A DNA stretch of 64,000 nt. Source: Alphaproteobacteria bacterium (lineage in GTDB: Bacteria > Pseudomonadota > Alphaproteobacteria > UBA828). The notes beneath the pieces are model-generated. The model saw only the letters and a list, made by a program, of their open reading frames with translations. It was not told the origin of the DNA and ran no database searches. Below, in pieces: positions 433 to 54,418 of this stretch (positions within the stretch are counted from its first letter, which is position 1; each line of letters starts with the position of its first letter). The stretch lies in contig CBDCCI010000001.1 of NCBI GenBank assembly GCA_965214705.1, forward strand, positions 350,887 through 414,886, given 5' to 3'. A program made the translations under genes and the position numbers.

Positions 433-1350
433 CTACGGCTCCGCCGGTGTCTCCGGCTGGCGCCTGGCCGCGTGGATCAGCAGGGCAACGCCCGCCAGCA
501 TCAGCACCGCGGCGGCCCAGACGTAGGCGCTGTGGCTCTCCTGGAAGAAGAGAATGCCCCAGCCAAGGCCGGCCACCACCACCACGTAGTTGAACTGCGA
601 GAAGAACACCGGGCCGGCCGCGCGCACGATGATCAGGAAGGTGATGTACATGGTGATGGTGACGCCAGCGGCGCCCAGGATCGCGAGATCGGCGACGGTG
701 TCCGGCCCCGGCACCACGTAGGTCTCGCCGAGCCCGATCATCACCGGCGCCAGCATGATCGCCGCCGCGGTCACGATGCCGCTCGCGAAGGTGAGCACCG
801 GTGTCTCCGGCGGGTCGATCACGGCCGCGAGATTGTTGGTCAGCGCGAAGGAGGCGGGCGCCAGCAGGGCGAGCAGGAACCACACCACCATGCCGGGCTC
901 GGGCAGGGAAAACGTCGGGATTGCCATCAGGAGGATGCCGACCACACCGCACAGCACGCCGATCAGGCTCAAGGCGCGCACCCGTTCCAGCCGGAGCGCG
1001 AGCGCGATCAGATAGGTGATGGGCGGCGAGAGGATCACCACCATGGAGAGGATGCCGGTCGGCAGCTTCGGCGCGAGCCAGGTGATCAGCGCGATCGGCG
1101 CGGCGATGCCGAAGAGCCCGAGCACGATATAGGCCTTGAGATGCCGGGCCCCCAGGCGCGGAAGCGCGCGGCGCCAGGCGGCGAGGATCAGCAGCAGGAC
1201 CGCGGCGCCGAGCGTCTGCCAGAAGGTGAAGGCGACCGGCGGCGTCCCTGCCTCCACCGCGATCTTGTTCATGGTGAAGATGAGCGGATAGACCGCCCCA
1301 ATCGTGAACAGCAGGAAGATCGGGAGAGAAAGCGGCCCGCGGCGCCGCAT
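433..1350 (-). CDS. DMT (EamA-type) family transporter
   Basis: 305-aa ORF that is hydrophobic throughout, with about 10 predicted TM segments in two EamA-like halves (FTFWQTLGAAVLLL..., FFSQFNYVVVVAGLGWGILFFQE). Confidence 0.85.
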   Translation of the reverse strand: MRRRGPLSLPIFLLFTIGAVYPLIFTMNKIAVEAGTPPVAFTFWQTLGAAVLLLILAAWRRALPRLGARHLKAYIVLGLFGIAAPIALITWLAPKLPTGILSMVVILSPPITYLIALALRLERVRALSLIGVLCGVVGILLMAIPTFSLPEPGMVVWFLLALLAPASFALTNNLAAVIDPPETPVLTFASGIVTAAAIMLAPVMIGLGETYVVPGPDTVADLAILGAAGVTITMYITFLIIVRAAGPVFFSQFNYVVVVAGLGWGILFFQESHSAYVWAAAVLMLAGVALLIHAARRQPETPAEP

Positions 1351-1378
1351 CAGGCTTGTGGTCTAAGAAACGTGAAGA

Positions 1379-2176
1379 CTATTGGGCGGCGGCGGTGCGC
1401 TCGGGTTCCGACAGCAGGCAATCGTCGTCGAGCGGCTCGACCGGGGTGAAATCCCGGTGCGCGATGTACTCCGGCCGCTGGAAGCGCCGGATCGCATTGT
1501 CCACCCGGTTGGCCGAAAAATAGACCGCGCGACGGCCCCAGGGCGACATGTTGGGCGCGGAGCCGTGCACCAGATTGCAGTGGAAGAGCAGCGCCGCGCC
1601 GGGCTCACCCTTGGGTGCCACGATGCCGCCTTCCGCCACCAGTTTCTCGATGGTCTCGTTGTCGACGGTCCAGAGCGGGTAGCTCGTGGTCTCGAGATCG
1701 TGACCGGCCTCGATCCGGCCGCGCCGGTGCGAGCGCGGAATGAACATCAGCGGGCCGTTGAACTCGTTCACCGGGTCCAGGTAGACGGCAAGGTTCATGG
1801 CCCGGGGCTCGGGCATCAGGTCGTCCCGCGACCAGGTGCCGTAATCCTGGTGCCACTGCCAGACGTCGCCGTCGAAGGCGGCCTTGGCGTTCACCTTGAA
1901 CTGGTGGATGTAGACCGGCCCGCCGAGGATCTGCATCGCTGGCTCGACCAGGCGCGGATGGCGGGAAAGCCGCCAGTAGATGTCGCTGTAGGTGTGGACG
2001 CCGAACGCGGTGCGCACGGCGCCGTTGCGCTCGCGCACGATTTCCGGCCCCTCGTGCGCGAAAACGGCCGGCAGCGCCGCGCGCAACGCGGCTGCTTCCT
2101 CGGCCGAGAACAGGTCCGGCAGGAAGAGAAATCCCTCGCGGTCCAGGGTCTCGCACTGTTCGGCGGAAAGCTTCAT
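1379..2176 (-). CDS. Fe(II)/2-oxoglutarate dioxygenase, PhyH family, ectoine-hydroxylase-like
   Basis: ATG at 2176 preceded by GGAGGGAG. WQWHQDYGTWSRDDLMP (HxD iron ligands) and LLFHCNLVHGSAPNMSPWGRR resemble the EctD/PhyH signature regions. Confidence 0.85.
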   Translation of the reverse strand: MKLSAEQCETLDREGFLFLPDLFSAEEAAALRAALPAVFAHEGPEIVRERNGAVRTAFGVHTYSDIYWRLSRHPRLVEPAMQILGGPVYIHQFKVNAKAAFDGDVWQWHQDYGTWSRDDLMPEPRAMNLAVYLDPVNEFNGPLMFIPRSHRRGRIEAGHDLETTSYPLWTVDNETIEKLVAEGGIVAPKGEPGAALLFHCNLVHGSAPNMSPWGRRAVYFSANRVDNAIRRFQRPEYIAHRDFTPVEPLDDDCLLSEPERTAAAQ

Positions 2177-2230
2177 CGGTCGCTCCCTCCTGCGCCTCGC
2201 GCTCAAATTGCGCCCAGAGCGGCGGGTGCG

Positions 2231-3169
2231 TCAAGACGCCGGATCGCCTGCCTTGCCCTTCGGCGCAGCGGGCCGGTTGACCAGGAAGAGCCCCGCAAGC
2301 ATGAGCACGAGCGCGAGCCAGATCCAGTAGCTGTGGCTCTCGCCGAAGAAGAGCACGCCCCAGCCGATGCCGGTGAGCGGGATCATGAAGTTGACCGTGG
2401 TGAAGAACACGGGGCCGGCGAGGCGGATGATCTCGACCATCAGGTAGAAAACCAGCGCCGTGACTCCCGCAGCGGCGGCCAGCGCCCAATGGCCGTCGGT
2501 CATCGGCCCTTCGAACCACCACCACTGGCCGGTTGCCGCCATGACGACGAACATGAAGGCGGCCCCGGTTGCGAGTATGCCGCCGGCGAGCGGCAGCGCG
2601 CCGTCGGGCGGCGGCTTGAGCCACGAGATGATCAACGCGTTCGCGACATAGAGCACCGGGCCGACGAAGCTCAGCAGCACCCAGGGTGCCATGTCGCGGC
2701 TGGGCAGGCTGGTCTCGGGCACGACCACGAGCGCCACGCCGCCGACGCCGAGGACCAGCCCGATGGTGCGGATCGCGCGGAAGCGGTCCATGCGAAAGAG
2801 CGCGGCGGCCGGGTAGGTGAGGATGGGCGTGAGCGTCGCGCCCAGCCCGAGCACGCCCGCCGGCACCTTGGGCGCGACGAAGGCCAGCACGGTGTAGGTC
2901 ATGCCGAAGGAGATCGTGCCGAGCACGAGATAGCCGCGCATATGCTCCCACGAGAGCTTGGGCAGCGTGCGGAACACCGCGCCGAATGCCAGCAGGATGA
3001 GCGCGGCGCCGGTCCCCATCCAGAACACGTAGGGAATGAAGGGAATGCCGTCGGTGGTCGCCAGCCGATTGAGCGAATAGAGGATGCCCCAGCCTAAGGC
3101 GGAAACGACCAGCAAGACCGCCGGCCAAAGGAGCGCGTGTGCGCCGCCGCGCGGTGCAGGTTCTGGCAC
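2231..3169 (-). CDS. DMT (EamA-type) family transporter
   Basis: Hydrophobic EamA-like repeats (FIPYVFWMGTGAALILL..., FFTTVNFMIPLTGIGWGVLFFGE). The listed ORF's Arg-rich N-terminal extension overlaps the upstream gene, so a GTG start at 3169, 6 nt after the upstream stop, is preferred. The start is uncertain. Confidence 0.75.
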   Translation of the reverse strand: MPEPAPRGGAHALLWPAVLLVVSALGWGILYSLNRLATTDGIPFIPYVFWMGTGAALILLAFGAVFRTLPKLSWEHMRGYLVLGTISFGMTYTVLAFVAPKVPAGVLGLGATLTPILTYPAAALFRMDRFRAIRTIGLVLGVGGVALVVVPETSLPSRDMAPWVLLSFVGPVLYVANALIISWLKPPPDGALPLAGGILATGAAFMFVVMAATGQWWWFEGPMTDGHWALAAAAGVTALVFYLMVEIIRLAGPVFFTTVNFMIPLTGIGWGVLFFGESHSYWIWLALVLMLAGLFLVNRPAAPKGKAGDPAS

Positions 3170-3174
3170 GTGCG

Positions 3175-5169
3175 CTACAGCCTCATGCCAAGCATGCGGC
3201 CTTCGTAGAAGGCCATGCTCGCGGTGCGAGCGGCGACCGTGTCGCCCGCGGCGTGGACCTCGATGGAATCGTCGGCGAGTGCGCGGGCGAGCCCGTCGTC
3301 GACCGTGTTGGTGGTCGCGAGCACGAGGCTGTCGGCTTCCACCTGCCGCTCCTCGCCGGTGTGAAGGTTCGCGATGGTGGCCGTGCCGCCGGCCCAGCGG
3401 GTCAGCGCGTGGGCGCCGATCACCTCGACGCCCTGCTTGGCAAAGCGCTCGCGCGTGCTCGAGCCGAGATGCGAGTTGTCGAGCGCTTCCGCGGGCTTCT
3501 CGGAGGCGGTGACGACGGTCACGGCATGACCCCGCTCGGAGAGGTGGAGCGCGGTGCCAGACGCGGGCCACCAGCCGTTGAGGTCATCGAGCAGGAGGAC
3601 CCGCGCGCCGGGCTTGGCGGTGCCGTCCAGAACATCGTTCACGGCATACACGTTCTCCCGCCCGACGCCGGGAAGGGCATCGACGTGCGGGAGCGCCCGC
3701 TGGAATCCCGTGCGCGTGGGCACCGACCCGGTGGAGAGCACGACCGCGTCGGCGCCGAAGTCGCGGATGGCGTCGGCGGTCATCTCCGTACCCAGCTCGA
3801 CGCGGACCTGCAGCTTCTCAAGCTGGGTCCCGTACCAGGTCAGCAGCTCGTCGATCTCCTCCCGCTCCGGCTGCGCCGCGGCGAGGCGAAACTGCCCGCC
3901 GAGCGCGTCCGCCTTCTCCACCAGCGTGACCCGGTGCCCGCGCATCGCCGCGACACGGGCGGTCTCCAGCCCTGCCGGGCCGCCGCCCACTACCAGGACG
4001 TGACGGGGCGTCTCGGCAGGCGGGGCGCTGTCGCCGTCCCACGCGAACTCGCGGCCGGCGGAGGGATTGACGAGGCACGAGATGTGGTAGTCCCGCATGC
4101 GCCGACCGAGGCAGAGCTGATTGCAGGAGATGCAGGGCCGGATGTCGTCTGCGCGGCCCTCGCGCGCCTTGTTGGCGAGGTGCGGATCGGCGATCTGCCC
4201 GCGCACGATCGAGACCAGATCGCAACAGCCGCTCGCGATGGCGGCCTCGGCGCGCGCGGGCGTCTTCACCCGCGCTTCGGCGGTGACCAGCGCGTGCTTC
4301 ACCACCTGCTTGATGGCGGCGGCGGAGTCTGTGCCGAGCGGCGCCGCGTAGTGGAAGCCCGGCACGATCGCCGTGAACCGGTTGATGTAGCTGCCGGTGC
4401 CGCAGGAGAAGTAGTCCGCGAGGCCGCGCTCGTCGAGCCAGGCGAAGATCTCCTGCTTGTCGGCCATGGTGAGGCCGCCGGGGTAGGGCTCGGCGCCGGA
4501 GACGGTCATGCCGACGATGAAATCCGACCCGCAGGCCTTGCGGATGCCGTCTGCGATCTTGGTCACGAAGCGCAGCCGGTTCTCCAGGCTGCCGCCCCAG
4601 GCATCGTCGCGCCGGTTGGTGAGCGGCGACCAGAATTGGTCGATCAGGCAGGAGTAGCCGGCGAAGAGGTCGACCCCGTCGAACCCGCCCTTCTGGTCGC
4701 GCACTGCCTGGCCGATAAAGGCCTGGATCAGCTCGCGGATCTCCGCCTCGCTCATGGCGTGGCTGCCCCAGGGGTCGTGGTGGCTGACCTGGCCGGAGGG
4801 GGACCAGTAGGGCGACCAGGAGTTGTCCTGATCGCCGTGGGCGCCGACGTGATAGATCTGGTGGCACATGACGGTGCCATGGCTGTGGCACTCGTCGGTG
4901 ATCCTGCGGAAGTGGGGGATGACGGCGTCGTCGGCCATGAAGTTGCCGCGCGTGAGGACCGCCGTCGGATGGGGCGGCGTGGGCTCGACCACGATCATGC
5001 CGGCGCCGCCACGCGCGCGCTCCCGGTAGTAGCCGAAGTGGCGCTCGGCCGGCAGCCCGCCCTCGGCCATGTTGGCGGTGTGCGCGCCGAAGACGATGCG
5101 GCAGCGGAGCGTATGCCCCCGGAGGCGCGCCGGCGCAAACAGGTTGGGGAAGTGTTCCGGTTGCGTCAT
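3175..5169 (-). CDS. Multi-domain flavoprotein: OYE-like FMN barrel + 4Fe-4S Cys motif + FAD/NAD(P)-binding domain (2,4-dienoyl-CoA reductase / amine demethylase type)
   Basis: ATG at 5169 preceded by GGGGAGCG. CISCNQLCLGR...C cysteine cluster and VLVVGGGPAGLETARVAA Rossmann motif. The N-terminal half resembles Old Yellow Enzyme family proteins. Confidence 0.85.
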   Translation of the reverse strand: MTQPEHFPNLFAPARLRGHTLRCRIVFGAHTANMAEGGLPAERHFGYYRERARGGAGMIVVEPTPPHPTAVLTRGNFMADDAVIPHFRRITDECHSHGTVMCHQIYHVGAHGDQDNSWSPYWSPSGQVSHHDPWGSHAMSEAEIRELIQAFIGQAVRDQKGGFDGVDLFAGYSCLIDQFWSPLTNRRDDAWGGSLENRLRFVTKIADGIRKACGSDFIVGMTVSGAEPYPGGLTMADKQEIFAWLDERGLADYFSCGTGSYINRFTAIVPGFHYAAPLGTDSAAAIKQVVKHALVTAEARVKTPARAEAAIASGCCDLVSIVRGQIADPHLANKAREGRADDIRPCISCNQLCLGRRMRDYHISCLVNPSAGREFAWDGDSAPPAETPRHVLVVGGGPAGLETARVAAMRGHRVTLVEKADALGGQFRLAAAQPEREEIDELLTWYGTQLEKLQVRVELGTEMTADAIRDFGADAVVLSTGSVPTRTGFQRALPHVDALPGVGRENVYAVNDVLDGTAKPGARVLLLDDLNGWWPASGTALHLSERGHAVTVVTASEKPAEALDNSHLGSSTRERFAKQGVEVIGAHALTRWAGGTATIANLHTGEERQVEADSLVLATTNTVDDGLARALADDSIEVHAAGDTVAARTASMAFYEGRMLGMRL

Positions 5170-38994: not shown

Positions 38995-39094
38995 GCATCG
39001 ACGTTTGTTGAACGGGCGTCGTACCTGGAATTATGATGCCCACGACAATCCACCGGCGGCAAGGGACCGCCCACGCAATCGCAGGGAGCAGACC

Positions 39095-40342
39095 ATGAGA
39101 CTGAGCCGTAGACAGTTCTTCCAGGCAGCATCCGGCGCGCTGGCCTTCGCCAGCCTGCCTCATGTTCTGCGCCGCGCCGGCATAGCAAGCGAGGACCCGA
39201 TCAAGGTCGGCAACATCCTCGACCGCACCGGCATCCTCAACATCTACAGCCTGAAGCAGATTCAGGCGACCGCGATGGCGGTGGACGAGATCAATGCCGC
39301 TGGCGGCCTGCTGGGCCGGCCGCTGGAGCTGGTGTTCTACGATTCCCAGTCCGACGGCCAGTACAACTCGCAGTACGTCACCGAGGCGCTGGTCAAGGAC
39401 AAGTGCGTGGTTGTGCACGGCGGCATCACCAGCTCCTCGCGCGAGGTGATGCGCCCCATCGTGAACCGCTTCAAGGGGCTGTTGTTCTACAACTCGCTCT
39501 ATGAAGGGGGGGTCTGCGACCGCCGCCACGTCTCCACCGGCATGGTGCCGGCACAGCAGCTCGAGCCGCTGTTCGACTACGTGGTGAACGAGCTCGGCGG
39601 CAAGCGCTCCTACATCCTGGCGGCTGACTACAACTACGGCCACATCACGTCCAAGTGGATGCAGAAGTTCACCCGGGACAACGGCGGCGAGGACCTGGCG
39701 GTCGAGTTCTTCCCGCTCGACGTGACCAACTTCCAGCCGGCGATTTCGCGCATCCAGGCGGCGAAGCCCGACGTGGTGATGTCGGCGCTGGTGGGCGGTG
39801 CCCACATCGCCTTCTACCGCCAGTTCGAGGCCTCGATCGGCAAGGACAACATGATGCTGGCGTCGGGCTCTTACGGCGTCGGCCTGGAGCACACCCAGCT
39901 CAGCCCCGAGGAGGGCAACGGCATCATCCTGGCCACCTCCTTCGTGGACGACCTCGACACGGCCGAGGCCAAGGACTTCGTGAGCCGCTTCCACGCCTAC
40001 ACCGGCGACACCGGCTACGTGGGCGAGTACGGCGAATACGGCGAGCGCGGCATCAAGGTCTGGGCCGAGGCGGTGCGTCAGGCGGGCGATGCCAGCTCCG
40101 ATGCGGTGATCGATGCGCTGGCGACGAGCAACGTCAGCGTGATCGGCGCCGGCGGCCAATACACGGTGGACGGGCAGACCAACCACACGACCATGGACAT
40201 TCACATCGTGCGCGGCAACATGACGCAAACCTTCGACGTGATCCGCTCGTTCTCGCAGCGGCCACCGCTGGATACGCAGCAGGTCTGCGATCTCCACGCC
40301 AACCCCGACGACAAGACCCAGTACGAGGTCGAGGTCGAGTAG
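39095..40342 (+). CDS. ABC transporter substrate-binding protein, LIV/AmiC/urea-type (Peripla_BP_6-like) with Tat signal
   Basis: ATG at 39095 after GGGAG. MRLSRRQFFQAASGALAFA twin-arginine signal, and IKVGNILDRTGILNIYS...AVDEINAAGGLLGRPLELVFYDSQSD. Confidence 0.85.
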   Translation: MRLSRRQFFQAASGALAFASLPHVLRRAGIASEDPIKVGNILDRTGILNIYSLKQIQATAMAVDEINAAGGLLGRPLELVFYDSQSDGQYNSQYVTEALVKDKCVVVHGGITSSSREVMRPIVNRFKGLLFYNSLYEGGVCDRRHVSTGMVPAQQLEPLFDYVVNELGGKRSYILAADYNYGHITSKWMQKFTRDNGGEDLAVEFFPLDVTNFQPAISRIQAAKPDVVMSALVGGAHIAFYRQFEASIGKDNMMLASGSYGVGLEHTQLSPEEGNGIILATSFVDDLDTAEAKDFVSRFHAYTGDTGYVGEYGEYGERGIKVWAEAVRQAGDASSDAVIDALATSNVSVIGAGGQYTVDGQTNHTTMDIHIVRGNMTQTFDVIRSFSQRPPLDTQQVCDLHANPDDKTQYEVEVE

Positions 40343-40482
40343 AGATCGGGGCGTTACGACGACAATTTCGTAGCCGGGACGCCGGGTTCGTCGGCGGCGC
40401 GGGTCGCCGCCGACGGGCCGTCCTGCGTTCCCGGATGCGTGTTTGGCCCCGGTGCGCCCGGCCGGGGCGGCGGGGGTGACGG

Positions 40483-41343
40483 TTGGATCAGGTCGCGAAC
40501 TATCTCTTCCAGATCGGCTTTTCCTTCTCGATCTTCATCCTGATCAGCCTCGGGCTCGCGGTCATCTTCGGGATGATGCGGGTGATCAACCTGGCGCAGG
40601 GCGAGTTCCTCATGCTCGGCGCCTACTTCTGCACGCTCTGCAGCCACGCCGGGATCAACCTGTGGCTCTCGTTCATCCTGTCGGCGCTCGCCGTCGGGGT
40701 CTTCGGCATCATCGTCGAGCGGTTCATAATCCGCTGGCTCTACGGCCGCATCATCGACACGCTGCTCGCCACCTGGGGGCTGAGCCTGCTTCTGGTGGGC
40801 GGCGTTACCACCATCTTCGGGCCGCAGACCGAGAGCGTCGCCGCACCGCTCGGCAACGTGCAGGTGGGTGCCTTCGGCTTTCCTATCTACGGTCTGGTGA
40901 TGATGGCGATTGCCGTGGCGTTGCTGGGCGCGGTCTACGCCTTCTGGCGCTTCACCCGCTACGGGCTGATCGTGCGCGGCACCATGCAGAACCCGACGAT
41001 CTCGGCCGCGTTAGGGGTTAACCGCAGCCTTGTCTACATGCTGACCTTCGCCTTTGGCTCTGCGCTCACCGGGCTTGCCGGCGCGGTGCTGGCGCCCATC
41101 GTCGGCGCCTATCCCACGCTCGGCATCGTCTACGTCGCCAAGGCCTTCATCACGGTCATCACCGGCGGGCACCTGCCACTGATCGGCACGGTGAGTGCCT
41201 CTGGCCTCTTCAGCACCATCGACGGCATCGTCGCCACGATCTCGAGCTCGGTGATCGGCGAGATGACGGTGCTGTTCGTGGCCATCATCCTGCTCAGGCT
41301 GCTGCCGCTCGGAATTACCGGGCGTATGACGCGCGGGGTCTGA
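40483..41343 (+). CDS. branched-chain-amino-acid-type ABC permease (LivH-like)
   Basis: ISLGLAVIFGMMRVINLAQGEFLMLGAY is the typical LivH N-terminal block. TTG start. Confidence 0.85.
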   Translation: MDQVANYLFQIGFSFSIFILISLGLAVIFGMMRVINLAQGEFLMLGAYFCTLCSHAGINLWLSFILSALAVGVFGIIVERFIIRWLYGRIIDTLLATWGLSLLLVGGVTTIFGPQTESVAAPLGNVQVGAFGFPIYGLVMMAIAVALLGAVYAFWRFTRYGLIVRGTMQNPTISAALGVNRSLVYMLTFAFGSALTGLAGAVLAPIVGAYPTLGIVYVAKAFITVITGGHLPLIGTVSASGLFSTIDGIVATISSSVIGEMTVLFVAIILLRLLPLGITGRMTRGV

Positions 41344-41346
41344 GCG

Positions 41347-42456
41347 ATGATCCACGGCGTCGCCCTGATGCAGCACTCGAGCGAGCGCCCCAAATGGTGG
41401 TGGTGGGTCTTTGTCGCCGCGCTCGCCGCCTTCTTCATCACCATGCCTTTCCACCTGGAGATCTTCGTCATCCTGGAGATGTCGCGCTTCTTCGGGATGG
41501 CCATGCTCGCGCTCAGCATGGGCTTCCTCTGGGGCTTCAGCGGAATCCTGAGCTTCGGGCAGACCGCGTTCTTCGGGCTCGGCGGTTACGGCTTCACCGT
41601 GCTCGCGCTCAATACCGGCGAGACCACGGGCTCGGTCTTCTTCGCCGTCGTCCTCGGTGCAGCCGGCGCCGGCATCCTCGGCTACTTCATGATCTACGGC
41701 CGCATCAGCGAGATCTACCTGAGCGTCATCACACTGGTCTTCACACTGATATTGGAGAAGGGCATCCGCGCCACCTCGGGCGACCAGTACGTCATCGGCA
41801 AGGTGCGGCTGAACGGGCAGAACGGCATCCCCACCGTGCCGCAGCTGGACGTGCCGTGGAACCCGAGCGTGCAGCTCGACATCAACTGGTTCTTCTGGGT
41901 CGGCGCCGTGCTCATGATCCTGGTCTACATCGGGCTCCGGCTGATCCTCACCACGCCCTTCGGCCGGGTGCTGGTGGGCATCCGTGAGAACGAGCGCAGG
42001 ACCGAGCTGCTGGGCTATGACACGCGGCGCTACAAGCTCGCGGCCTTCATGCTGGCGGGCGGCGTGGCCGGCCTCGGCGGGGCGCTCTACGCCATCTCGA
42101 TCCCGCTGGCGCACCCGGAGATGTTCAGCCTGGGCCGCGCGGCGGACGTCATCATGTGGGTGCTGGTGGGCGGCAAGGGCACCTTGATCGGCCCGATCGC
42201 CGGCGTCTTCGCCATCGAGCACTTCAAGGGCTGGCTCGGCACCCAGGGCGTGGGCCAGGTGACGCTGGTGCTAGGCGCGGTGCTGATCCTCTTCGTCCTC
42301 GTCTTTCACAAGGGCCTGCTGCCGAGCATCGGCTCCCTGCCGGGCCGCTGGCTGGACCGGGCTGCGATCCGCGAGCAGCTGTCCGAGTTCGTGCAGCACC
42401 TCACGTGGCGCTCGGGCCCGCCGCGCCGGCGACGGCGCCAGGGAGGGCGGTCGTGA
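41347..42456 (+). CDS. branched-chain-amino-acid-type ABC permease (LivM-like)
   Basis: GILSFGQTAFFGLGGY, IRENERRTELLGYDTRRYKLAAFMLAGGVAGLGGAL. Confidence 0.85.
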   Translation: MIHGVALMQHSSERPKWWWWVFVAALAAFFITMPFHLEIFVILEMSRFFGMAMLALSMGFLWGFSGILSFGQTAFFGLGGYGFTVLALNTGETTGSVFFAVVLGAAGAGILGYFMIYGRISEIYLSVITLVFTLILEKGIRATSGDQYVIGKVRLNGQNGIPTVPQLDVPWNPSVQLDINWFFWVGAVLMILVYIGLRLILTTPFGRVLVGIRENERRTELLGYDTRRYKLAAFMLAGGVAGLGGALYAISIPLAHPEMFSLGRAADVIMWVLVGGKGTLIGPIAGVFAIEHFKGWLGTQGVGQVTLVLGAVLILFVLVFHKGLLPSIGSLPGRWLDRAAIREQLSEFVQHLTWRSGPPRRRRRQGGRS

Positions 42457-43193
42457 GCGAGGCGGTGCGCGAGGACGCGGTGATCCTGGAGACCCGGGCG
42501 CTGGAGAAGCGCTTCGGCGGGGTGAGCGCCATCGCCGGGGTCGACTTCGCGCTCCGACGGGGCGAGCTGCGCTGCCTGATCGGGCCGAACGGCGCCGGCA
42601 AGAGCACCTTCTTCAAGATGCTCACCGCCCAGATCAGGCCGTCCAGCGGTCAGGTCCTGTTCGACGGCCGCGACATCAGCCGCGCGCACCCGCACGAAAT
42701 CTCGCGCCTCGGCATCGGCATCAAGAACCAGGTGCCGGACGTCTACGACGGCATCACCGTGGACGAGAACCTGTGGCTGGCGGCGCATCCGCGCCACGGC
42801 ACCAGGGCCGCGCGCGCCAAGGTGGACGAGATCCTGGACAGGCTGGAGCTTCGCGATATCCGCTGGCAACTGCTCGGCGCGCTCGCCCACGGCCAGCGCC
42901 AGTGGGTCGAGTTCGGCATGGTCATGGCGCTGGAGCCCAAGATCATCCTGCTCGACGAGCCCACCGCCGGCATGAGCATCGAAGAGACCAACCGCACGGC
43001 GGCGCTGATCCGCGAGGTGAACCGGACTACGACCATCGTCGTGGTCGAGCACGACATGCAGTTCATCCGCCAGATCGCCGATGTCGTCACCGTGTTCCAC
43101 CAGGGCCGCATCCTGGCCGAGGACACCATGGCGCGCATCCAGGCCAACCAGGCCGTGCGGGAGGTCTATCTGGGGACGTCGGGCCTTGCTTGA
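42453..43193 (+). CDS. ABC transporter ATP-binding protein (LivG-like)
   Basis: GTG at 42453 after GGGAGGG, overlapping the LivM-like stop. Walker A GPNGAGKST, Walker B ILLDEPTAGM. Confidence 0.85.
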   Translation: MSEAVREDAVILETRALEKRFGGVSAIAGVDFALRRGELRCLIGPNGAGKSTFFKMLTAQIRPSSGQVLFDGRDISRAHPHEISRLGIGIKNQVPDVYDGITVDENLWLAAHPRHGTRAARAKVDEILDRLELRDIRWQLLGALAHGQRQWVEFGMVMALEPKIILLDEPTAGMSIEETNRTAALIREVNRTTTIVVVEHDMQFIRQIADVVTVFHQGRILAEDTMARIQANQAVREVYLGTSGLA

Positions 43194-43878
43194 GGTGGAG
43201 GGCCTGGGAGCCGGCTACGGCCGCATCCCGATCCTGAACGGAATCGATTTTTCCATCGCGCGCGGCGAGATCGTGGGCGTGCTCGGCCACAACGGCATGG
43301 GCAAGACCACGCTGCTGCGCACGCTGATGGGGGAGATCAGGGCCACCGGCGGCAGCATCGTGTTCGAGGACGAGGACATCACCCGGGTCGCCATGCACCG
43401 CCGCGCCCGGCTCGGCATCGGCTACGTGCCGCAGGGGCGGGACATCTATCCGCAGCTGAGCGTGATGGACAACCTGCGCATGGGCGAAATCGTGCGCCGG
43501 GGCCAAAGCGCGGTGCCGGAGCTGCTGGACTACTTCCCGGTGCTGGAAGCGCTGCTGGAGCGGCCGGGGCGGGCGCTCTCGGGCGGCGAGCAGCAAATTC
43601 TGGCGCTCGCCCGCTGCCTCGCCGGCCGACCGCGCCTGCTTCTGCTGGACGAGCCCACCGAGGGCATCCAGCCCTCCATCGTTGATCAGATCCAGGCGAA
43701 GCTCGCCGAGCTTGCCGCCGCCCTTGACCTCACGGTGCTCCTGGTCGAGCAGAACCTGCGCTTCATCCAGGCGCTGGCGGAGCGGGTGCTGATCATGCAG
43801 AAGGGCACCATCGTGGCGACCATCACGCCCGACCAACTCTCCGACCACGCAATCGTAGACGAGTACCTGGGTATCTGA
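43186..43878 (+). CDS. ABC transporter ATP-binding protein (LivF-like)
   Basis: TTG at 43186 overlaps the LivG-like stop by 8 nt. Walker A GHNGMGKTT, signature LSGGEQQ, Walker B LLLLDEPTEG. Confidence 0.85.
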   Translation: MLEVEGLGAGYGRIPILNGIDFSIARGEIVGVLGHNGMGKTTLLRTLMGEIRATGGSIVFEDEDITRVAMHRRARLGIGYVPQGRDIYPQLSVMDNLRMGEIVRRGQSAVPELLDYFPVLEALLERPGRALSGGEQQILALARCLAGRPRLLLLDEPTEGIQPSIVDQIQAKLAELAAALDLTVLLVEQNLRFIQALAERVLIMQKGTIVATITPDQLSDHAIVDEYLGI

Positions 43879-44075: not shown

Positions 44076-44942
44076 ATGCCCAAAATCACCAAGCGAGTCG
44101 TCGATGTCCTGCTCCCTGGTGAACGCGAGCGCATCGTCTGGGATAGCGACATCAAGGGCTTCGGTGTCCGCGTCCACCCAACAGGACGAAAGGTCTACAT
44201 CGTCAAGTACCGGCACGAGGGACGGTCCGTCAAAGTCACAATCGGACCCCACGGACCCATCACACCGGCAGCAGCTCGGGCCAAAGCCGCCGAGATCGTG
44301 ACGCTCGCAAAGACCGGCCGCGATGTGGCAGGAAAGACGCCCCTCGTAAGAGGGAGCGCCACCATGGAGAAACTCGCCCGGCGCTTCATGGACGAGTACG
44401 CGCCTGCCCATCTGAAACCGAGTACTGCCCGGTTGTACCGGAAGATTATCGAGAACCGGATCCTGCCGCGGTTCGGCAAGCGCCGTGTCAGCGATATCGG
44501 AAAGAGTGATGTCGTCGCCCTCCATCACGACATGCGCGACGTCCCCGACCATGCCAACCGCACGCTGAGCGTTCTCTCGCGCATGCTCACCCTGGCCGAG
44601 GTCTGGGAGATGCGCCCCGAGGGCGTGAACCCATGCCGGCACGTCAAGAAATATCCCGAGCACAAGCGCGAGCGGTTTCTCTCGGACGAGGAGTACGGGC
44701 GCCTCGGTGCTGCGCTGCGTGACGCGGAACGGGAGGGCTTCGCCTCTGCGGTGGTGATCGCCGCCATTCGCCTGCTGATGCTGACCGGCTGCCGGAGCGG
44801 TGAGATCATGAGCCTGCGGTGGGAGCACGTCGATCTGGAGATGGGCGAGCTTCGGTTGCCGGATTCGAAAACCGGCTCCAAGGTGGTGCATCTGGGCGAT
44901 CCGGCCATAGCGGTGCTGCGCGGCATTCTCCGCAAGGCGGAC
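44076..44942 (+). pseudogene. P4-type tyrosine integrase, 5' part (interrupted)
   Basis: MPKITKRVVDVL...DSDIKGFGVRVHPTGRKVYIVKYR (DUF4102-type arm-binding N-terminus) and LTGCRSGEIMSLRWEHVD (catalytic R). The frame is broken after ...ILRKAD at 44942. Confidence 0.85.
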
Positions 44943-45165
44943 TATGGCGCGACAATCTGCATGAGATCCGCGCGGCTATCAGGATGAGATTCCTGGCGGC
45001 GACGGCGCGTTGAGGATTCCGCTGTGAGGCGGGGATTGCAAGCTCTTTTTGGATTTTGATTGTCGCGGCGCGACAGTTTCTTCGAGCAGCCAGATTGACG
45101 CGGAGAGGAGGCGGCCCGCGGGGGTCGATCTCTCGCGGGCCGCGAGTGGGGCAGTGGTGGCCGGC

Positions 45166-47615
<2,450 letters not shown>

Positions 47616-47750
47616 CTACGCCCTCCCTACATTCCTGGCCGCCGATCTCCCCCGTCTCATCCTGATTGACGCTGCTGTTTTGCGGTAGGAACGCCGGTTA
47701 CCCAGCGCCCCCCGCACAGATCCCCGCAGGCCCGTTAGGGCACGAGGCTC

Positions 47751-49194
47751 CTACCTTGAGTGGTTGACGGCAAATCGCTGGTTTGGCCAAGGGTGGCGGA
47801 TGCTCAGTGGCGGCCAAAAGGCCCGCGCCAGGGCGCCGACCTTGGCCAGCGTGAAGCGGTCCTTTTGGGATCGGCGCCGCAGCACGCGACGCCATAGCCG
47901 CACGAGCCGGAACGTGAACTGCTTGAGGTACGGGAAGCTGGTTGGGACGGCATAGTATCGAAGCCATCCGTCCACGACCCTCCCAAGCCATTTTGCAACC
48001 TCGTACCGGTCATGGTGCATCCTTCGGCGCAGTTCGGCCTTGATGCGCTTGAGGGTTCGGTTGACCCGGCTTCGCATCGGTTTCCGGCCCAGACCGGGAC
48101 GTCCGGTCCTCGTGGTCCGGCAGTAATGCGTGAACCCGAGGAAGTCGAACGTTTCGGGACGCCGCTCGCCTCGCGCCCGCCGGCGTGCGATCGCCCGCTG
48201 GCCAAACTCGATGAGCCGCGTCTTGTCCGGGTGGAGGTCGAGCGAGAACAAAGCCAGCCTCGCCTTCAAGTCGCGCAGGAACCGTTCCGCGTCGCTCTTG
48301 TGCTCGAAACCGACCACAAAATCATCGGCGTAACGCACGATGATCGTGTCGCCGCAGGCCGTCCGCGAACGCCATTTCTGGAACCACAGGTCGAGCACAT
48401 AGTGGAGGTAGACGTTCGCGAGAATCGGCGAAGCCACCGCCCCTTGCGGGGTGCCCACCAGCGTGTCTGACCATGCGCCCTCTTCGATGACGCCCGCGTT
48501 GAGCCACTTGGCGATCAGCCGGAGTGCCCGCCGATCCCCGATGCGATGGCCCAAGAACCGGAGCGTCCAGTTCCTGTCCAGGTTATCGAAGAACCCACGG
48601 ATGTCGGCGTCAACGATCCAGTTGACCCGGCGTCGGTCGATCCCGTACGCCAGAGCATCGAGCGCGTCGTGCGCCCCACGCCCCGGACGGAACCCATAGC
48701 TGAACCCGAGGAAGGCCGGCTCGTAAATTGGCGTCAGGATAATCTCCGTCACCGCCTTCTGGACGATCTTGTCCTCTAGCGCGGCGACGCCGAGCGGTCG
48801 TGTCCCGCCGTCTGGCTTGGGTATCTCTACCCGCCGGACCGGCGGCGCCCGATACGCTCCGGTCTGTACGCGACGGTGAAGGTCGAGCAGCCGCTCTTCC
48901 AGCCCCTCCGCGTACTGAGCCCATGTCATGCCGTCTACCCCCGCTGCGGCGTCCCGCTTCAGCGCGTGGAAGGCCCAGCGCAGCGCGTCCGGCGTGACAT
49001 GATGCAAGAGCGCCGTCAGCTTCTCCCGCGGCTTCCTCGTTGCAGTTTGCCGTATCCGCTCGGCGGCCTGGGACACGCTTTCCCGGCTCTGCGTCCGGCG
49101 CGTGCTTTCGCGTCGCGGATTCCTCTCGGTTCCGGCCCTTCGCTTCATCGGCTCCGCCGGACCTCGCGGCCCCTTGTTCGCCGACTTCATCGCT
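47751..49194 (-). CDS. group II intron reverse transcriptase/maturase (outer intron), major 3' portion; a 35-nt 5' portion lies at 51219-51253
   Basis: RT motifs PKPDGGTRPLGV, FSYGFRPGRGAHDAL, GTPQGAVASPILANVYL, RYADDFVVGF. Maturase X-like C-terminus. The N-terminal codons (MYESKQSDSAIV) are separated from the rest by the inner intron. Confidence 0.85.
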
Positions 49195-51218
49195 GTCGGG
49201 TCGGAGGAGGCGCCCCGCGAGGCTAGCCTCCGTCCGCCGCTCAAACGGCCCGTACGGTTTTCCCGTAAGCCGCTTTCACAAAGGTGTCTCAACGAAGGTT
49301 CAAGGACGGAACCAGTGAGATCAGGCGAACAAGCCCGTATTCGTCGATCAGCTTGCGCTCCGGCAACTGTTTCCAGCCAGCGTTGCGCCAGCGCTTGCGA
49401 CGATGCGACCAGAGCCGCCGCACGATCCAGCCGTCAAGCTGGTGGAAGAGCCCGCGGACGTGGGCCTTGCAATAGTATTGGCCCCATCCCCGAATGATCG
49501 GGTTGATCTCGTCAATCAGCTCCTGCGTGCTGACAGGAGCCTTGCGCCGGGTACGCTGGCGAATCTGGTCCTTGAAGTGCCGGATGGATTTCTCACGCGG
49601 AACCGCGTAGCGCGCTCCCCCGCGAACCCCGCTCTTGATCTTGGAGGACGACAGCCGGAGAGGCCGCTCGCCCTGCTTGATCTTGTAGCCGAGGAACTCA
49701 AACCCGTGCCTGACATGGACAATGCGGGTCTTCCCGGCGTTGAGGGACACACCCAGCTTTGCCAGAATCCGCCTGGCCGTCTCCAGTGCTGCGCGGGCTT
49801 CCCCGCGTGTGCGGCACGTGATCAGCCAATCATCGGCGTATCGCGTTAGTCGATAGCCGCGACGACGCATTTCCCAATCGAACGGGGTCAGCAAGATATT
49901 GCTGAGCAGCGGTGAAACGATGCCGCCCTGCGGAGTGCCCTGTTCGGTCGGCAGCCTCTTACCGTCGGCCACCACCCCGGCCGTGAGCATCTGCCTGAGC
50001 AGACCTAATACCCGGCCATCCGAGACTCGCTGGTTGACGAGTTCGAGGAGCTTTTCGTGGTCCACGGACCCGAAAAAGTCTTTCAAATCCGCATCGAGAA
50101 CCCACTCGTTGCCCTCGTCCAGTTCCCTCCATATCTTGCGTAACGCTCCATGGGCAGACCTTCCTTGCCGGTACCCGTAGTTGGCATCGTCGAACACCGG
50201 CTCGAAGATCGGTTCCAGCCGGTTCAGCAGCGCCTGCTGGCACACCCGGTCGTAGATTGTCGGGATGCCGAGCGGGCGGAACTTCCCCGGCTGGCCCGCC
50301 TTGGGGATCAGGCATTGGAGAACCGGCTGCGGGTGATACTCACCGTCCCGCAACTCCCGGTGCAGGCGATCGAGATTTGCATCCAGCGATGCCTCGAACG
50401 CCGCTAAATCCTCTCCGTCCACGCCACCGGCACCCCGGTTGCGCTTCACCTTTTCCCAGGCCACCTCAAGGTTCTTCCGCTTGTACACCTTGTCCACCAG
50501 TGAGTGGACCTTCCTGTCACCCGCCGGGTTGATCCAGTCGATGAGTCTCCTCGGGCCATGATGTCCGGGTCTTTCGCTCAAGGAACTTGTCCGCGTCATG
50601 GTCCTTACTCACTCATCGCTGTCTCTCGCCGACCACCTCTGCCAACCGACTTCCCCGGCCCACACGGCCGCCGCTCGCGCGGTCACCCGGCTTTCGCCGG
50701 GCTTCAGGTACTATTCGGTTGTCCGATTGCTCGCCGCGCATCCTTTCCCATTTCGCCTTTCGGCTTATAGGGTCCGTTATCCCGGTGCCACCCGGGAACG
50801 CGGCGAGCCCTCCTGGGGTCACGTCCAGATCTTCCGTACCGTGCCGCTCGCAAACACCTTGGTGCGACGGGTGGGTAAGAACGCCTTCGCCGCCATAGTG
50901 CCGGCTCGACCTTGCCCCGTCTTTGGCCGACCGATTCATCATGGGGTGGCCCCCTCGATTACGGCCCGGTACTTCTCCGCAAGCCCTTCAGATTCCACCT
51001 CGCGGTGGACACCCTGCCTTCCGGTTGTCTTTCGACAGTGGACCAACTTAGCTCCTCCCTTGGCTGTCTCCGCCGTTTCCGGCTTCGTGCCCGTTTAGAG
51101 TTTCGCTTATCGGCTCACTCCGGCCAGTGAGGAATTACCCCCACTTTTGGATATGGCGCCCCTTACCCGAGCGCCAGTGGGACTTGAACCCACCTGATCT
51201 GGGCGCTGCCCAGCACAC
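49195..51218 (-). mobile_element. group II intron (inner), 2,024 nt, inserted in the RT ORF of the outer intron
   Basis: 5' GUGUGC at 51218. Canonical domain V AAGCGGCU-UACGG-GAAAA-CCGUA-CG-GGCCGUUU at 49275-49243 (AGC triad, 2-nt bulge). Domain VI has an A bulged 7 nt before the ...CCCGAC 3' end. An alternative boundary pair 51220/49200 also preserves the frame. Confidence 0.75.
49289..50599 (-). CDS. group II intron reverse transcriptase/maturase (inner intron), no endonuclease domain evident
   Basis: VDKVYKRKNLEVAWEKVKRNRGAGGVDG, PKAGQPGKFRPLGIPT, YGYRQGRSAHGAL, GTPQGGIVSPLLSNILL, RYADDWLI, and the X-domain block RGWGQYY. Confidence 0.9.
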   Translation of the reverse strand: MTRTSSLSERPGHHGPRRLIDWINPAGDRKVHSLVDKVYKRKNLEVAWEKVKRNRGAGGVDGEDLAAFEASLDANLDRLHRELRDGEYHPQPVLQCLIPKAGQPGKFRPLGIPTIYDRVCQQALLNRLEPIFEPVFDDANYGYRQGRSAHGALRKIWRELDEGNEWVLDADLKDFFGSVDHEKLLELVNQRVSDGRVLGLLRQMLTAGVVADGKRLPTEQGTPQGGIVSPLLSNILLTPFDWEMRRRGYRLTRYADDWLITCRTRGEARAALETARRILAKLGVSLNAGKTRIVHVRHGFEFLGYKIKQGERPLRLSSSKIKSGVRGGARYAVPREKSIRHFKDQIRQRTRRKAPVSTQELIDEINPIIRGWGQYYCKAHVRGLFHQLDGWIVRRLWSHRRKRWRNAGWKQLPERKLIDEYGLVRLISLVPSLNLR

Positions 51219-51642
51219 ACTATGGCCGAATCAGATTGCTTCGACTCGTACATCTTCGATTCGGATATCCTCCTTTCTTCCGCGGCCCCGGTACGACCAC
51301 CGGGGCAAGTCGAAGCCCTCCCGAGTCCCGGCACAGGGGTGTACGTGCGTCCATGGATTCCTCAGACAACGCGGAGCCCCGCAGTGCCTCACCAGAGCGG
51401 TCCTGCGGGTGTCGCCTTCGGCCGATGAGAAAACCTCGGCACTCCGGACCATAACATTTTCGATGCTCAATCATCCCGGCCACACGCGCCGCTACCGACG
51501 CTTCGACCGCACCCTCACGGATGCCGCCGCACGGCTCGCGGTGGAAGTAGTGGTTAGCCTTTCCTTCCCGTCGGACTCTCACCGACTCCCCTGCGCCAGT
51601 TAGCTCGGCGCTCCTCATCTTGTTTGTCGCGCCGCACCGGAC

Positions 51643-51930
51643 AGTCCCTGGGTATTCCCGGGCGTCAAGCCCGGCAGGCATATGACCTATTTGCACGACT
51701 CGTGGCGTCGCATTCTCGACCGGGCCGGGATCGAGAATCTGCGCATCCACGATCTTCGGCATTCCTACGCGAGTGGCGGTCTACTGGTCGGCGAAGGATT
51801 GCCGATGATCGGAAAGCTTCTGGGTCACAGCAAAGTGCAGACCACGGCCCGCTACGCTCATCTGGCCAACGATCCTCTGAAGGCTGCTGCCAACCGAATC
51901 GCGAGCCGAATCGCCGAAGTCGCGGGTTAA
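51643..51930 (+). pseudogene. P4-type tyrosine integrase, 3' part
   Basis: SPWVFPGVKPGRHMTYLHDSWRRILDRAGIENLRIHDLRHSYAS (HxxR) ... LGHSKVQTTARYAHL (catalytic Y). Joining 44942 to 51643 restores one 384-codon frame. Confidence 0.85.
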
Positions 51931-52750: not shown

Positions 52751-54175
52751 CTAAGCCGTTGACATAGAGGCATTTGTGTTTTTGTTGTCGTCGTCGATCT
52801 CGACCAGTTGGAAGCCGAGCTTCTTGGCCTGTCGACGGAGCGAAGAGAACTTTCGGTCCAGGCGTCGGCTCTCGTAGACCTCCATCCCCTTCTCGGCATA
52901 TTGCTGGCCGCGGGTCACCATCAGGTAGATCAGGCAGGCGAGTTCTCGGGCGGTGGCGACAACGGCTACGCTGGTGTCCATCCGGGCGAGGCGGCTGCGG
53001 TGCTTGGCGCCGATGAAGGTTTGGCTGGTGCGAGCGGTCATGGCCGCCATGCGCAGTGCCTGGCCAACGCGGTTGACCACCTTGGGCCCCCGGCCCGGCA
53101 ACGGTTTGCCGCCGCTGATCCTGGTCCCAGGCGCCAGCCCCAGCCAGGAACTGAAGTGCTGTGCGGAGGGAAAGGCGGAGAAGTCAGGACCGATCTCGGC
53201 GGCGATCACCAGGGCAGTGTTGACGCCGACGGTGGGGATTGCGGTGAGATCGACCCCCATCATCTTATGCAGCGCCATAGCCATGGCCTTATCCTGCCCG
53301 CGGAGCGCCCTGCCGCTGCTGCTTGGGGTCTCGTTCGACGCCGTGCCCGATGATCCGACACTGGGAGTGTCCTCGGGCGTACCCTCATCCGTCGGATCGT
53401 CCGGCGGGGTCAGGTGCTCAACCTCCGCCATGATCCGCGCCTCGCAGTCCGCGATCTGCTGCTCCAGAAAGTCGTAGCGCTGCATCGCCTGCTCAAGCGC
53501 GAACAGGTGCTCCTCGCGCCAAGTGCCCTCCAGGCTCGCGGCAATCGTGTCGGCGCTGGCCTTGATCCGCCTGTCGCGAAGCGACGCCAGCCGCCCGGGG
53601 TCGCGCTCGCCGGCGATGATCGCCCGCAGGATGCGCTCACCCGTCTTCCCCATGATATCGCTGATCACCGAGTCCAGACGCACGTTCATCTGGGTCAGCG
53701 CCTTCTGCATATGCAGCACGCAGCGAGAGCGGTCCTCGATCAACTGCTTCGCCTGGCGCATGAAGGAGCGCAACGGGCAGATCGCGTCGCCCGGCCGGAA
53801 GGCGCCGCGCAGAAGGCCGTAGGACATCAGCTGCCAGATCCACTGGCAGTCCAGCACATCGCTCTTGCGCCCGCCGATCTGCTTCGTCATCCGGGGCGGC
53901 ACAAGCATCACCTCGAAGCCGGCTCGATCCAGGACCTCGTAAACCGGGATCCAGTAGACCGAGGTCGACTCCATCGCCACCTTCGTCACACCGCACGACT
54001 TCAGCCACTCGGCCATCGCATCCAGGTCGCGCGTGAACGCGCCGAACTCCCTCACCGGTTCCTCGGCTCGCTCCGGATCCACCGCCACGAAGTGCCGGTC
54101 CTTGCCGATGTCGATCCCGGCGCAATTCGGGTGCACTACCTTGAGGCGCTGCCTCCTTCTCCGCTTGCGCGCCAT
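52751..54175 (-). CDS. IS110-family transposase/recombinase
   Basis: ATG at 54175 seven nt after GGAGG. VVHPNCAGIDIGKDRHFVAV, VAMESTSVYW and SDVLDCQW (DEDD-type N-domain). C-terminal LTAIPTVGVNTALVIAAEIG...FSSWLGLAPGTRISGGK block. Confidence 0.9.
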   Translation of the reverse strand: MARKRRRRQRLKVVHPNCAGIDIGKDRHFVAVDPERAEEPVREFGAFTRDLDAMAEWLKSCGVTKVAMESTSVYWIPVYEVLDRAGFEVMLVPPRMTKQIGGRKSDVLDCQWIWQLMSYGLLRGAFRPGDAICPLRSFMRQAKQLIEDRSRCVLHMQKALTQMNVRLDSVISDIMGKTGERILRAIIAGERDPGRLASLRDRRIKASADTIAASLEGTWREEHLFALEQAMQRYDFLEQQIADCEARIMAEVEHLTPPDDPTDEGTPEDTPSVGSSGTASNETPSSSGRALRGQDKAMAMALHKMMGVDLTAIPTVGVNTALVIAAEIGPDFSAFPSAQHFSSWLGLAPGTRISGGKPLPGRGPKVVNRVGQALRMAAMTARTSQTFIGAKHRSRLARMDTSVAVVATARELACLIYLMVTRGQQYAEKGMEVYESRRLDRKFSSLRRQAKKLGFQLVEIDDDNKNTNASMSTA

Positions 54176-54418
54176 CGAGAGCCCTCCCAAACTCCGTTGA
54201 CGTTGCGGGTGGGGAGGAACCGCGGCGAAGTCTCAATCTCTTGAACGAGGTCACGGGCGAACCCGCGCCATCAGTGACAGAAGCCGATCACGGTTCGGGC
54301 CAAGCTTCCAAACGGGTGCCCTCGCACGCCACTGAAGGGACGGCCTCGTCTGCCCTACCCGCTACCACTTCACGCTTCAACCGTCGAAGACTCAACCCCA
54401 GTCGAAGACTCTACCCCC
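54176..54418 (-). ncRNA. candidate bridge (guide) RNA region in the IS110 5' leader
   Basis: The non-coding leader contains a tandem GAGTCTTCGAC x2 and a CGGG-UUCG-CCCG hairpin. A 9-mer (54236-54244) is identical to the DNA just outside the element's other end (52731-52739). An 8-mer (54194-54201) is identical to the element's 3' end (52756-52763). Function is inferred by analogy with characterised IS110 elements. Confidence 0.3.

Follow-up and report, generated by a model that had tools for sequence, protein, structure and literature searches.

Whether one group II intron can be housed within the reverse transcriptase (RT) gene of another, such that its removal returns the host gene to frame, was the question raised by a 64,000-nucleotide (nt) stretch of genomic DNA from an Alphaproteobacteria bacterium (lineage UBA828; contig CBDCCI010000001.1, positions 350,887 to 414,886), referred to here as the window. 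The minus strand of the window has two RT open reading frames (ORFs), at 50599..49289 and from 49292 to 47751, and stop codons close the upstream in-frame continuation of the second. An original prediction, made from the letters of the DNA without database searches, had proposed that the first of these ORFs belongs to an inner intron lying inside the RT ORF of an outer intron and that excision of the former restores the frame of the latter. Our analyses support this nesting and indicate that it is itself enclosed in two further layers, an IS21-family insertion sequence (IS) and a tyrosine integrase gene. We consider it highly probable that the inner intron of this four-layered nest belongs to a family that targets other introns and that it would splice first, with its own maturase, followed by the outer intron.

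The outer maturase ORF is in two pieces on the minus strand. Piece 1 (51253..51219) encodes MYESKQSDSAIV and is cut off within codon 12, with a GGAGG located 15 nt upstream of its ATG, and piece 2 (49194..47751) runs from AMKSANK... to the stop codon and contains a second in-frame ATG at 49190. When 49195-51218 was removed, the two pieces joined as ATG 51253 ...AIV|AMKSANK..., giving 492 codons and a stop, which places the insertion 35 nt after the outer maturase start codon (codon 12/13 region). A search of 5.8 billion proteins identified an uninterrupted counterpart of this fused RT, P0001, which is 492 amino acids (aa) long and aligned over its full length with a listed identity of 100%, the alignment showing one substitution (~99.8%). 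The same search identified more than 100 full-length homologues of 490-505 aa. In an alignment of the fused RT with 21 homologues the junction, ...SDSAIV|AMKSANKG..., was within a conserved stretch and none of the 21 had a gap there, a gap being one of the findings that the original prediction had named as telling against it. The outer RT also scored 345 bits against TIGR04416 (cut-off 300), and both maturase ORFs at the locus are intact.

Evidence for the nesting was also obtained at the DNA level. The metagenome contig L001 carries an uninterrupted version of the outer intron that is 96-98% identical to that in the window, with L001 positions 133-545 aligning to window 51631-51219 and positions 546-2116 to window 49194-47601. 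Because this alignment breaks at exactly the two bases that flank the inner element, we interpret the 2,024 nt between them as a precise insertion without target duplication. The absence of a duplication at the inner insertion matches the expectation for reverse splicing into DNA (retrohoming). The inner element lies wholly within the outer one and its exact removal restores the host sequence, which is the arrangement that characterizes a twintron. Based on P0001, L001 and the gap-free junction, the central claim of the original prediction was upheld. Homologues that begin at MKSANK with their own domains I-III upstream were looked for and were not found. The shorter members of the cluster, at 479 and 465 aa, are as long as proteins starting at MKSANK and at MKRRAG would be, and from their length alone these appear to be gene calls on interrupted or cut copies. 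Such members, which by length fit starts at internal Met codons, suggest that gene callers truncate the outer maturase.

The inner element (51218..49195, minus strand; 2,024 nt) has the features of a complete group II intron. Its ends were fixed by the comparison with L001 and by 30 full-length relatives with the same ends, and its termini, 5' GUGUGC and 3' ...GAC, conform to the GUGYG/AY rule and are common to those relatives. The ORF is preceded by 619 nt of non-coding RNA, and a fold of the 5' 640 nt from an alignment of 31 copies contained 136 consensus pairs, of which 73 had compensatory changes, with 2.3% of cells non-standard; the domain I-III structure that had been proposed as a check on this region is present. 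Domain V (49275-49243, minus strand) has an AGC triad, an AC bulge and a GAAAA loop, with compensatory changes in 5 pairs, and domain VI (49242..49195, minus strand) has an A bulged 7 nt before the 3' end, at window position 49201. In the 31-copy fold of the two domains, 10 of 32 predicted pairs had compensatory changes. The 436-aa ORF (50599..49289, minus strand) encodes an RT/maturase with a YADD motif, Pfam RVT_1 and GIIM matches and no endonuclease domain, and scored 384 bits against TIGR04416 (cut-off 300). This RT was nearer to those of the IIC type (GsI-IIC, E = 1e-63) than to TeI4h (7e-47), and its closest solved relatives are IIC-type. The hallmarks originally ascribed to the inner intron (GUGUGC at 51218, about 620 nt of 5' RNA, a YADD RT, domain V, and a domain VI with a bulged A) were thus corroborated by covariation and profile matches.

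Pairing between the inner intron and its target was also apparent. The last six bases of the 5' exon form intron-binding site 1 (IBS1), CAUAGU (51219..51224, minus strand), which is part of a conserved host motif, GGCCAUAGU^A, and matches the consensus of Rfam family RF01998. These six bases pair with exon-binding site 1 (EBS1), ACUAUG (50899-50894, minus strand), and the pairing covaried in six variant lineages, the pairs being CAUAGU/ACUAUG in the window and CAUGGU/ACCAUG, CAAAGU/ACUUUG, CGUAUU/AGUAUG, UGUAAU/AUUAUG and ACGGUGG/CCACCGU elsewhere. A number of results tell against this account of the inner intron. No covarying candidate was identified for the inner EBS2/IBS2 pairing, the GAAUCGG sequence being invariant while the exon positions vary. 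The Rfam model for domains V and VI, RF00029, matched neither domain V of the window even at E <= 10, and the sole Rfam group II match to the inner intron, to RF02001, scored 21.4 bits and was under the 32-bit threshold. RF00029 did reach its threshold at the homologous 3' end of inner-intron relatives in L020, L023, L024, L028, L040 and L052. Because RF00029 gave no match in the window, covariation was used as the evidence for domain V.

Two side observations were made on the RNA. RF00029 missed both window domains V despite their canonical form and covariation, which represents an annotation blind spot in this GC-rich lineage. In addition, a T-arm-like hairpin, GGUGGGUUCAAGUCCCACU, is present at ~51194-51176 (minus strand; inner intron positions 25-43); it is retained in the family consensus fold and has weak Rfam matches to tRNA-like families (mascRNA, Plastid-ycf2).

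The outer, endonuclease-less group II intron (51613..47677, minus strand, the same strand as istA, discussed below) is 3,937 nt long with the inner intron and 1,913 nt without it. It was matched by RF02005 (group-II-D1D4-6) at 51579-51357 with 152 bits (threshold 49) and E = 1e-43, so that a chance match is not an issue. This was the only above-threshold Rfam match in the window, and the Rfam scan that the original prediction had recommended therefore succeeded for the outer intron, but for the inner one it returned only the sub-threshold RF02001 match and nothing from RF00029. The outer domain V (47750-47719, minus strand; 6 of 13 pairs compensatory) and domain VI (47716-47681, minus strand; with a bulged UA) are where they had been predicted, and together had compensatory changes in 12 of 28 pairs. 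Homology with five relatives ends at 47677, which fixes the 3' end of the intron.

The 5' end of the outer intron required revision, and with it the setting of the whole nest. The original prediction had the outer intron run from GTGCGG at 51637 to 47677 and directly interrupt the surrounding DNA. GTGCGG is closer to the GUGYG consensus than is the GAGCG at 51613, and homology to L001 extends to 51631, both of which favor the longer version. However, position 51637 marks one boundary of a block of 6,695 bp (44943..51637, minus strand; 2,758 bp without the twintron) that is bordered by a 5-bp duplication, CGGAC, at 44938..44942 on the left and 51638..51642 on the right (plus strand). Within this block are istA, encoding an IS21 transposase (46005..47543, minus strand; NCBIfam NF033546 transpos_IS21, 216.7 bits, cut-off 160), and istB, encoding the IS21 helper ATPase (45166..46008, minus strand; PF01695 IstB_IS21, 216 bits, E = 5e-64). 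The 24 nt from 51637 to 51614 recur inverted at the other end of the block. After removal of the intron, both ends carry a two-repeat pattern, GGCGCGACAA.C..(G/C)ATGAGA followed by GCG.C.ATCAGGATGAGA. The flanking plus-strand DNA encodes the two parts of a P4-type tyrosine integrase: an ORF for residues 1-289 (44076..44942) that is cut by the insertion, and residues 290-384 plus stop (51643..51930; PF00589), which are collinear with homologues. Deletion of 44943-51637 together with one copy of CGGAC restored a 384-aa integrase, ...ILRKAD|SPWVFPG..., and dozens of homologues of exactly 384 aa, 80-94% identical, are collinear across the join.

Based on istA and istB, the repeats, the 5-bp duplication and the restored integrase, the block was assigned as an IS21-family element and GTGCGG as its terminus. 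A direct antisense insertion of the outer intron in the integrase was also considered and was dropped on account of the duplication, the inverted repeats and the 384-aa reconstruction. Terminal repeats L1 and L2 of the IS21 left end flank the outer intron, which is upstream of istA, and the order of nesting reconstructed from these joins is integrase, IS21-family element, outer intron and inner intron. The original prediction had overlooked the enclosing IS21 element. The association of outer-type introns with IS21 was not found to be fixed, as those of L068 and L069 are not in IS21 and L033 contains a homologue of istA that runs in the opposite direction.

Further evidence on the 5' end came from relatives of the outer intron. 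L068 contains an uninterrupted copy in an unrelated context, and its homology with the outer intron starts exactly at 51613, at GAGCG. The outer IBS1, GAUGAG (51614..51619, minus strand), lies within terminal repeat L1 and pairs with EBS1, CUCAUC (51424..51429, minus strand), in a hairpin loop of domain I. This pair covaries only in the 51613 register, being GAUGAG/CUCAUC in the window, GGUGAG/CUCAUC in L001, GGUGAC/GUCAUC in the L006 group, GCUGGU/AUCAGC in L010, ACUUGA/UCAAGU in L039, GCAAGC/GUUUGC in L011 and GUGUC/GACAU in L068. With a start at 51613, the motif GGUGAGAGUCC is ~31 nt into the intron. A point on the other side is that GAGCG departs from GUGYG. Since L001, L068 and L039 have GAGCG in common with the window, it does not appear to be a private lesion, and we regard it as a lineage trait; the 5' ends of outer-type introns elsewhere are GUGCG in L008 and L011, GAGUG in the L006 group and GAAUG in L010. 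On these comparisons we place the start of the outer intron at 51613, 24 nt from the position first proposed, and consider a start at 51637 in directly interrupted DNA to be extremely improbable.

The 3' flank that L001 has in common with the window (hairpin 47596-47640) was examined as a possible intron extension or REP-like element and was rejected, being single in the window and part of the IS21 left-end sequence. The same part of the left end, upstream of istA, contains a perfect 14-bp inverted repeat, TCGGCGGCCAGGAA / TTCCTGGCCGCCGA (window 47591-47645). L001 has this region (positions 2070-2116) up to the contig end, which precedes the second arm, and L001 is without 23 nt just 3' of the outer intron, IS repeat L2 included.

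The setting of the nest raised the possibility that it is an inert fossil, composed of dead mobile elements in a broken integrase that no longer splice or move. The integrase is destroyed, the left-end repeats of the IS are now 3.9 kb apart, which may disable it, the outer 5' end is non-canonical, and several related nests have decayed (L006, L014, L034 and others). Against this, neither maturase ORF is shortened, each EBS1 pairs perfectly with its IBS1 and both sets of domains V and VI are intact. The inner RT, moreover, is present unchanged in the public protein collection, in entries on three contigs and in a cluster of 53 members, and recent movement of its family is indicated by an occupied and empty pair of sites, described below. 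We therefore consider the fossil explanation improbable.

Is the nest a single event, or does the inner intron make a practice of entering other introns? The inner RT was used as query against one genome per species, which identified 66 loci in many phyla, the closest relatives being from uncultured Alphaproteobacteria, Nitrospirales, Entotheonella and others. Full-length copies of the inner intron, 69-91% identical in DNA, were present at 30 of these loci, and 26 of the 30 occupied the homologous site in another group II intron. Half of these 26 hosts (13) were of the outer type, with RF02005 upstream or an outer-like RT downstream, and seven had RF02001 and RF01998; the rest comprised one with RF01999, two with RF02003, and three with a different RT gene or host domain V downstream. 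The remaining four copies lay elsewhere and count against such a preference: those in L016, L020 and L022 had no recognizable host intron, and the fourth was in L026. With this reservation, the scan indicates that the inner intron is a member of a family found mainly inside other group II introns, with hosts that represent at least four RNA classes and come from many phyla. The copy in L026 (3425-3452) is at a different site, directly after a domain V-like sequence of another intron, and has an EBS1 (CCACCGU) that pairs with the exon sequence ACGGUGG, making it a naturally retargeted copy.

The site used by the family is a motif at the boundary of host domains III and IV, ...GAAGUCAG..GGCCAUAGU^A..., or in short form GGCCAUAGUA. 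The consensus of 25 distinct sites, gnaGnAGTCaGannngGcCATAGT|A, coincides with the RF01998 consensus, AGAAgUCAGCAGAgGcCAUAGU^Agccgcc...ggcggcGAAGGgC, and the insertion point within RF01998 is ...AGAAGUCAGCAGAGGCCAUAGU^A.... The RF01998 model has, immediately ahead of the ORF region, a helix of three pairs that encloses an internal loop (AUAGUA/GAAG) and a short hairpin; the insertion divides both this small helix and the loop. Where the host is of the outer type, the maturase ORF runs across the motif and encodes (E/K)(K/Q)SD..IV there, which raised the possibility that the target is conserved merely as KSD..IV coding sequence. This was ruled out, as in hosts of the RF02001/RF01998 type the ORF either takes the target bases in a different frame or starts downstream of them, and the motif is part of the Rfam ribozyme consensus. 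Because the frame differs, or the ORF lies downstream, in RF01998-type hosts, the target was taken to be a ribozyme element and not just protein-coding sequence.

Comparison of guests and hosts was informative as to how the family has spread. Inner copies that were 88-91% identical to that of the window occupied hosts that were only 69-82% identical, which implies repeated independent invasions. In L010 (3381-5405) and L069 (4038/4039), one outer-type intron at one genomic site was seen with and without a 2,025-nt guest, and the flanks are ~97% identical, an indication that the inner family has moved recently. Conceptual splicing left an intact host ORF in five nests (L002, L008, L010, L037 and L039). 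L033 and L034 have a derived CAUGGU/ACCAUG pair in common at different loci, which suggests that whole nests are also copied as a unit, probably by IS21 transposition or composite retrohoming. Inner-family copies with 88-93% protein identity (L002-L018, L039) were found in metagenome-assembled genomes labeled as Alphaproteobacteria, Nitrospirales, Thermodesulfobacteriota, Longimicrobiales, Entotheonella and Paracoccaceae, which implies recent horizontal spread, possibly within one community type. In L002, two more RF02003 matches (1593-1775 and 2467-2649, in 1264-3380) lie between the RF02005 region and the inner-family intron, which suggests a nest deeper than two introns.

Based on these features, we propose that the inner intron would splice first, from a transcript of the IS21 element or of the outer intron and using its own maturase. 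This would rejoin codon 12, and perhaps the host small helix near the start codon, at the predicted junction ...GCCATAGT|AGCGATG... (51219/49194). The outer maturase would then be translated from ATG 51253, and the outer intron would splice from the IS21 leader, at the predicted junction ...AAGATGAG|AGCAGCG... (51614/47676). The family may persist because other group II introns give it homing sites that do no harm and renew themselves, and it would spread with these introns and with the IS.

A consequence of this scheme is that expression of the outer maturase plausibly depends on prior splicing of the inner intron. Two points weigh against such a dependence: the second in-frame ATG, at 49190, is 4 nt past the inner 3' splice site and could bypass inner splicing, and it is possible that outer maturase is supplied in trans from an uninterrupted copy. 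The nest could then be real yet without hierarchy, the outer ribozyme folding around the inner intron and either intron splicing first, or the two moving as a unit. A loop of 1.5 kb is normally no obstacle in domain IV, which makes such folding plausible, and the near-identical uninterrupted maturase gene in public data (P0001) and the whole-nest copying suggested by L033 and L034 are in keeping with it. In the twintrons of Thermosynechococcus elongatus, furthermore, protein made from the equivalent second ATG had maturase activity, and a single maturase mobilised the two introns (Mohr, Ghanem and Lambowitz 2010, PMC2882425). In the homologues of the outer RT, however, the position of Met14 (ATG 49190) is V, M, S, L or E, whereas they conserve the upstream start and the KQSDSAIV segment. 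ATG 49190 also has no Shine-Dalgarno sequence upstream and is in a region buried in, or abutting, the stable inner domain VI, and in the host motif the insertion cuts through the small helix together with the internal loop. On balance we view a nest without hierarchy as unlikely, though less so than a fossil, and favor the sequential scheme in which inner splicing comes first.

The original prediction had described such hierarchical nesting as rarely documented in bacteria. This is a fair statement, yet there are close precedents (PMC2882425, PMC2504315, PMC4649490, PMC4424553). Reviews mention several twintrons from bacteria and the repeated homing of Methanosarcina introns into other introns (PMC4424553). 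In T. elongatus, ORF-less TeI3 F3 introns lie within TeI4 F1 introns, between the first two maturase ATGs (PMC2882425). The resemblance to the window is considerable: in both, the inner intron is at a conserved domain IV site that follows the first in-frame ATG of the outer maturase and precedes the second, the inner copies are near-identical and the outer ones diverged, the introns are endonuclease-independent, and other members insert in an insertion sequence. In contrast to the Thermosynechococcus inner introns, which have no ORF and use the maturase of the outer family, that of the window has its own intact 436-aa RT/maturase and so does not fit the F3 type. The two Thermosynechococcus introns are, in addition, relatives within one genome, whereas the hosts of the window inner family span at least four RNA structural classes and many phyla.

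A second point of comparison is the targeting of a conserved motif in other retroelements. Dai and Zimmerly (2003) are said, in papers citing them, to have reported B-like introns that insert in the YADD-coding motif of intron RT genes. Like the window inner family, the B-like lineage that uses this site, which includes introns of Methanosarcina and Photorhabdus, is endonuclease-less and RT-encoding, homes to a site conserved in other retroelements and recognizes it chiefly by IBS/EBS pairing with the 5' exon, and its nests occur in archaea and bacteria. M.a.I5, UA.I3, P.l.I2 and B.th.I3 of this lineage home to the stretch of other RT genes that encodes YADD (Tourasse and Kolsto 2008, PMC2504315). 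The window target is instead a ribozyme motif at codon 12/13 and not the YADD codons, which in the outer RT are near residue 303, and the locus is not of the RYADD type. Its target also varies in frame, or is outside the ORF, between hosts, unlike the YADD-coding target. In the Trichodesmium erythraeum twintron, for which sequential splicing has been demonstrated (Pfreundt and Hess 2015, PMC4649490), the inner intron is in host domain I and the twintron in a conserved protein-coding gene, whereas in the window these sites are the start of the maturase ORF and the leader of an IS.

Introns that home into IS provide a third comparison, and like them the outer intron of the window is seated in a mobile element and not in a housekeeping gene. 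RmInt1 homes into ISRm2011-2. The outer intron differs from these cases in that it lies between two terminal transposase-binding repeats of an IS21-family element and in that, given L068 and L069, the association is not fixed. F4 introns of T. elongatus likewise home into ISEL1 (PMC2882425).

Against these precedents, the single locus is an instance of the known twintron phenomenon, and targeting of a ribozyme motif by a whole family is a variant of a known strategy. It differs from the known systems in that the guest has its own RT, the target motif is in the ribozyme core, and the hosts belong to at least four RNA classes and to many phyla. No published description of the inner-intron family was found in the literature searched, which was an incomplete set with the bacterial group II intron database outside it. 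We offer only tentatively, as somewhat more doubtful than not, the stronger proposal that the family is an undescribed, cross-phylum, RT-encoding lineage of obligate parasites of introns whose homing site is the RF01998 GGCCAUAGU^A loop, and that guest splicing gates the expression or the domain IVa binding of the host maturase. If the family does consist of such parasites, any group II intron with the target motif would be a potential host.

Bacterial twintrons have been deemed rare curiosities, and the data presented here point to a whole family, with a range that takes in Alphaproteobacteria, Planctomycetota, Acidobacteriota and Chloroflexota, that resides for the most part within other group II introns, where its target is a conserved ribozyme sequence. 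The family is a clear example of a selfish element that exploits another as a secure place to land, one that renews itself, with parallels to the nested retroelements of eukaryotes, and the nests offer a natural system for asking whether a guest intron gates the expression of its host's maturase. One published pipeline for collecting introns is unable to find the outer member of a twintron (PMC8919778), and twintrons are set aside by a second (PMC4028801). The short EBS1/IBS1 rule and the naturally retargeted variants may also be of interest to builders of targetrons.

The neighborhood of the nest contained additional genes. No tRNA genes were identified in the window by ARAGORN, and the attachment site of the integrase is not an obvious tRNA here. 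Just past the split integrase, in the same island, is an IS110-family transposase gene (DEDD_Tnp_IS110 and Transposase_20; 52751-54190, minus strand). Directly upstream of the integrase, at 39005-43878 (plus strand), are genes resembling those of a branched-chain amino-acid ABC transporter, which comprise a periplasmic binding protein (PF13433/PF13458), two permease-like ORFs and two ATPase-like ORFs.

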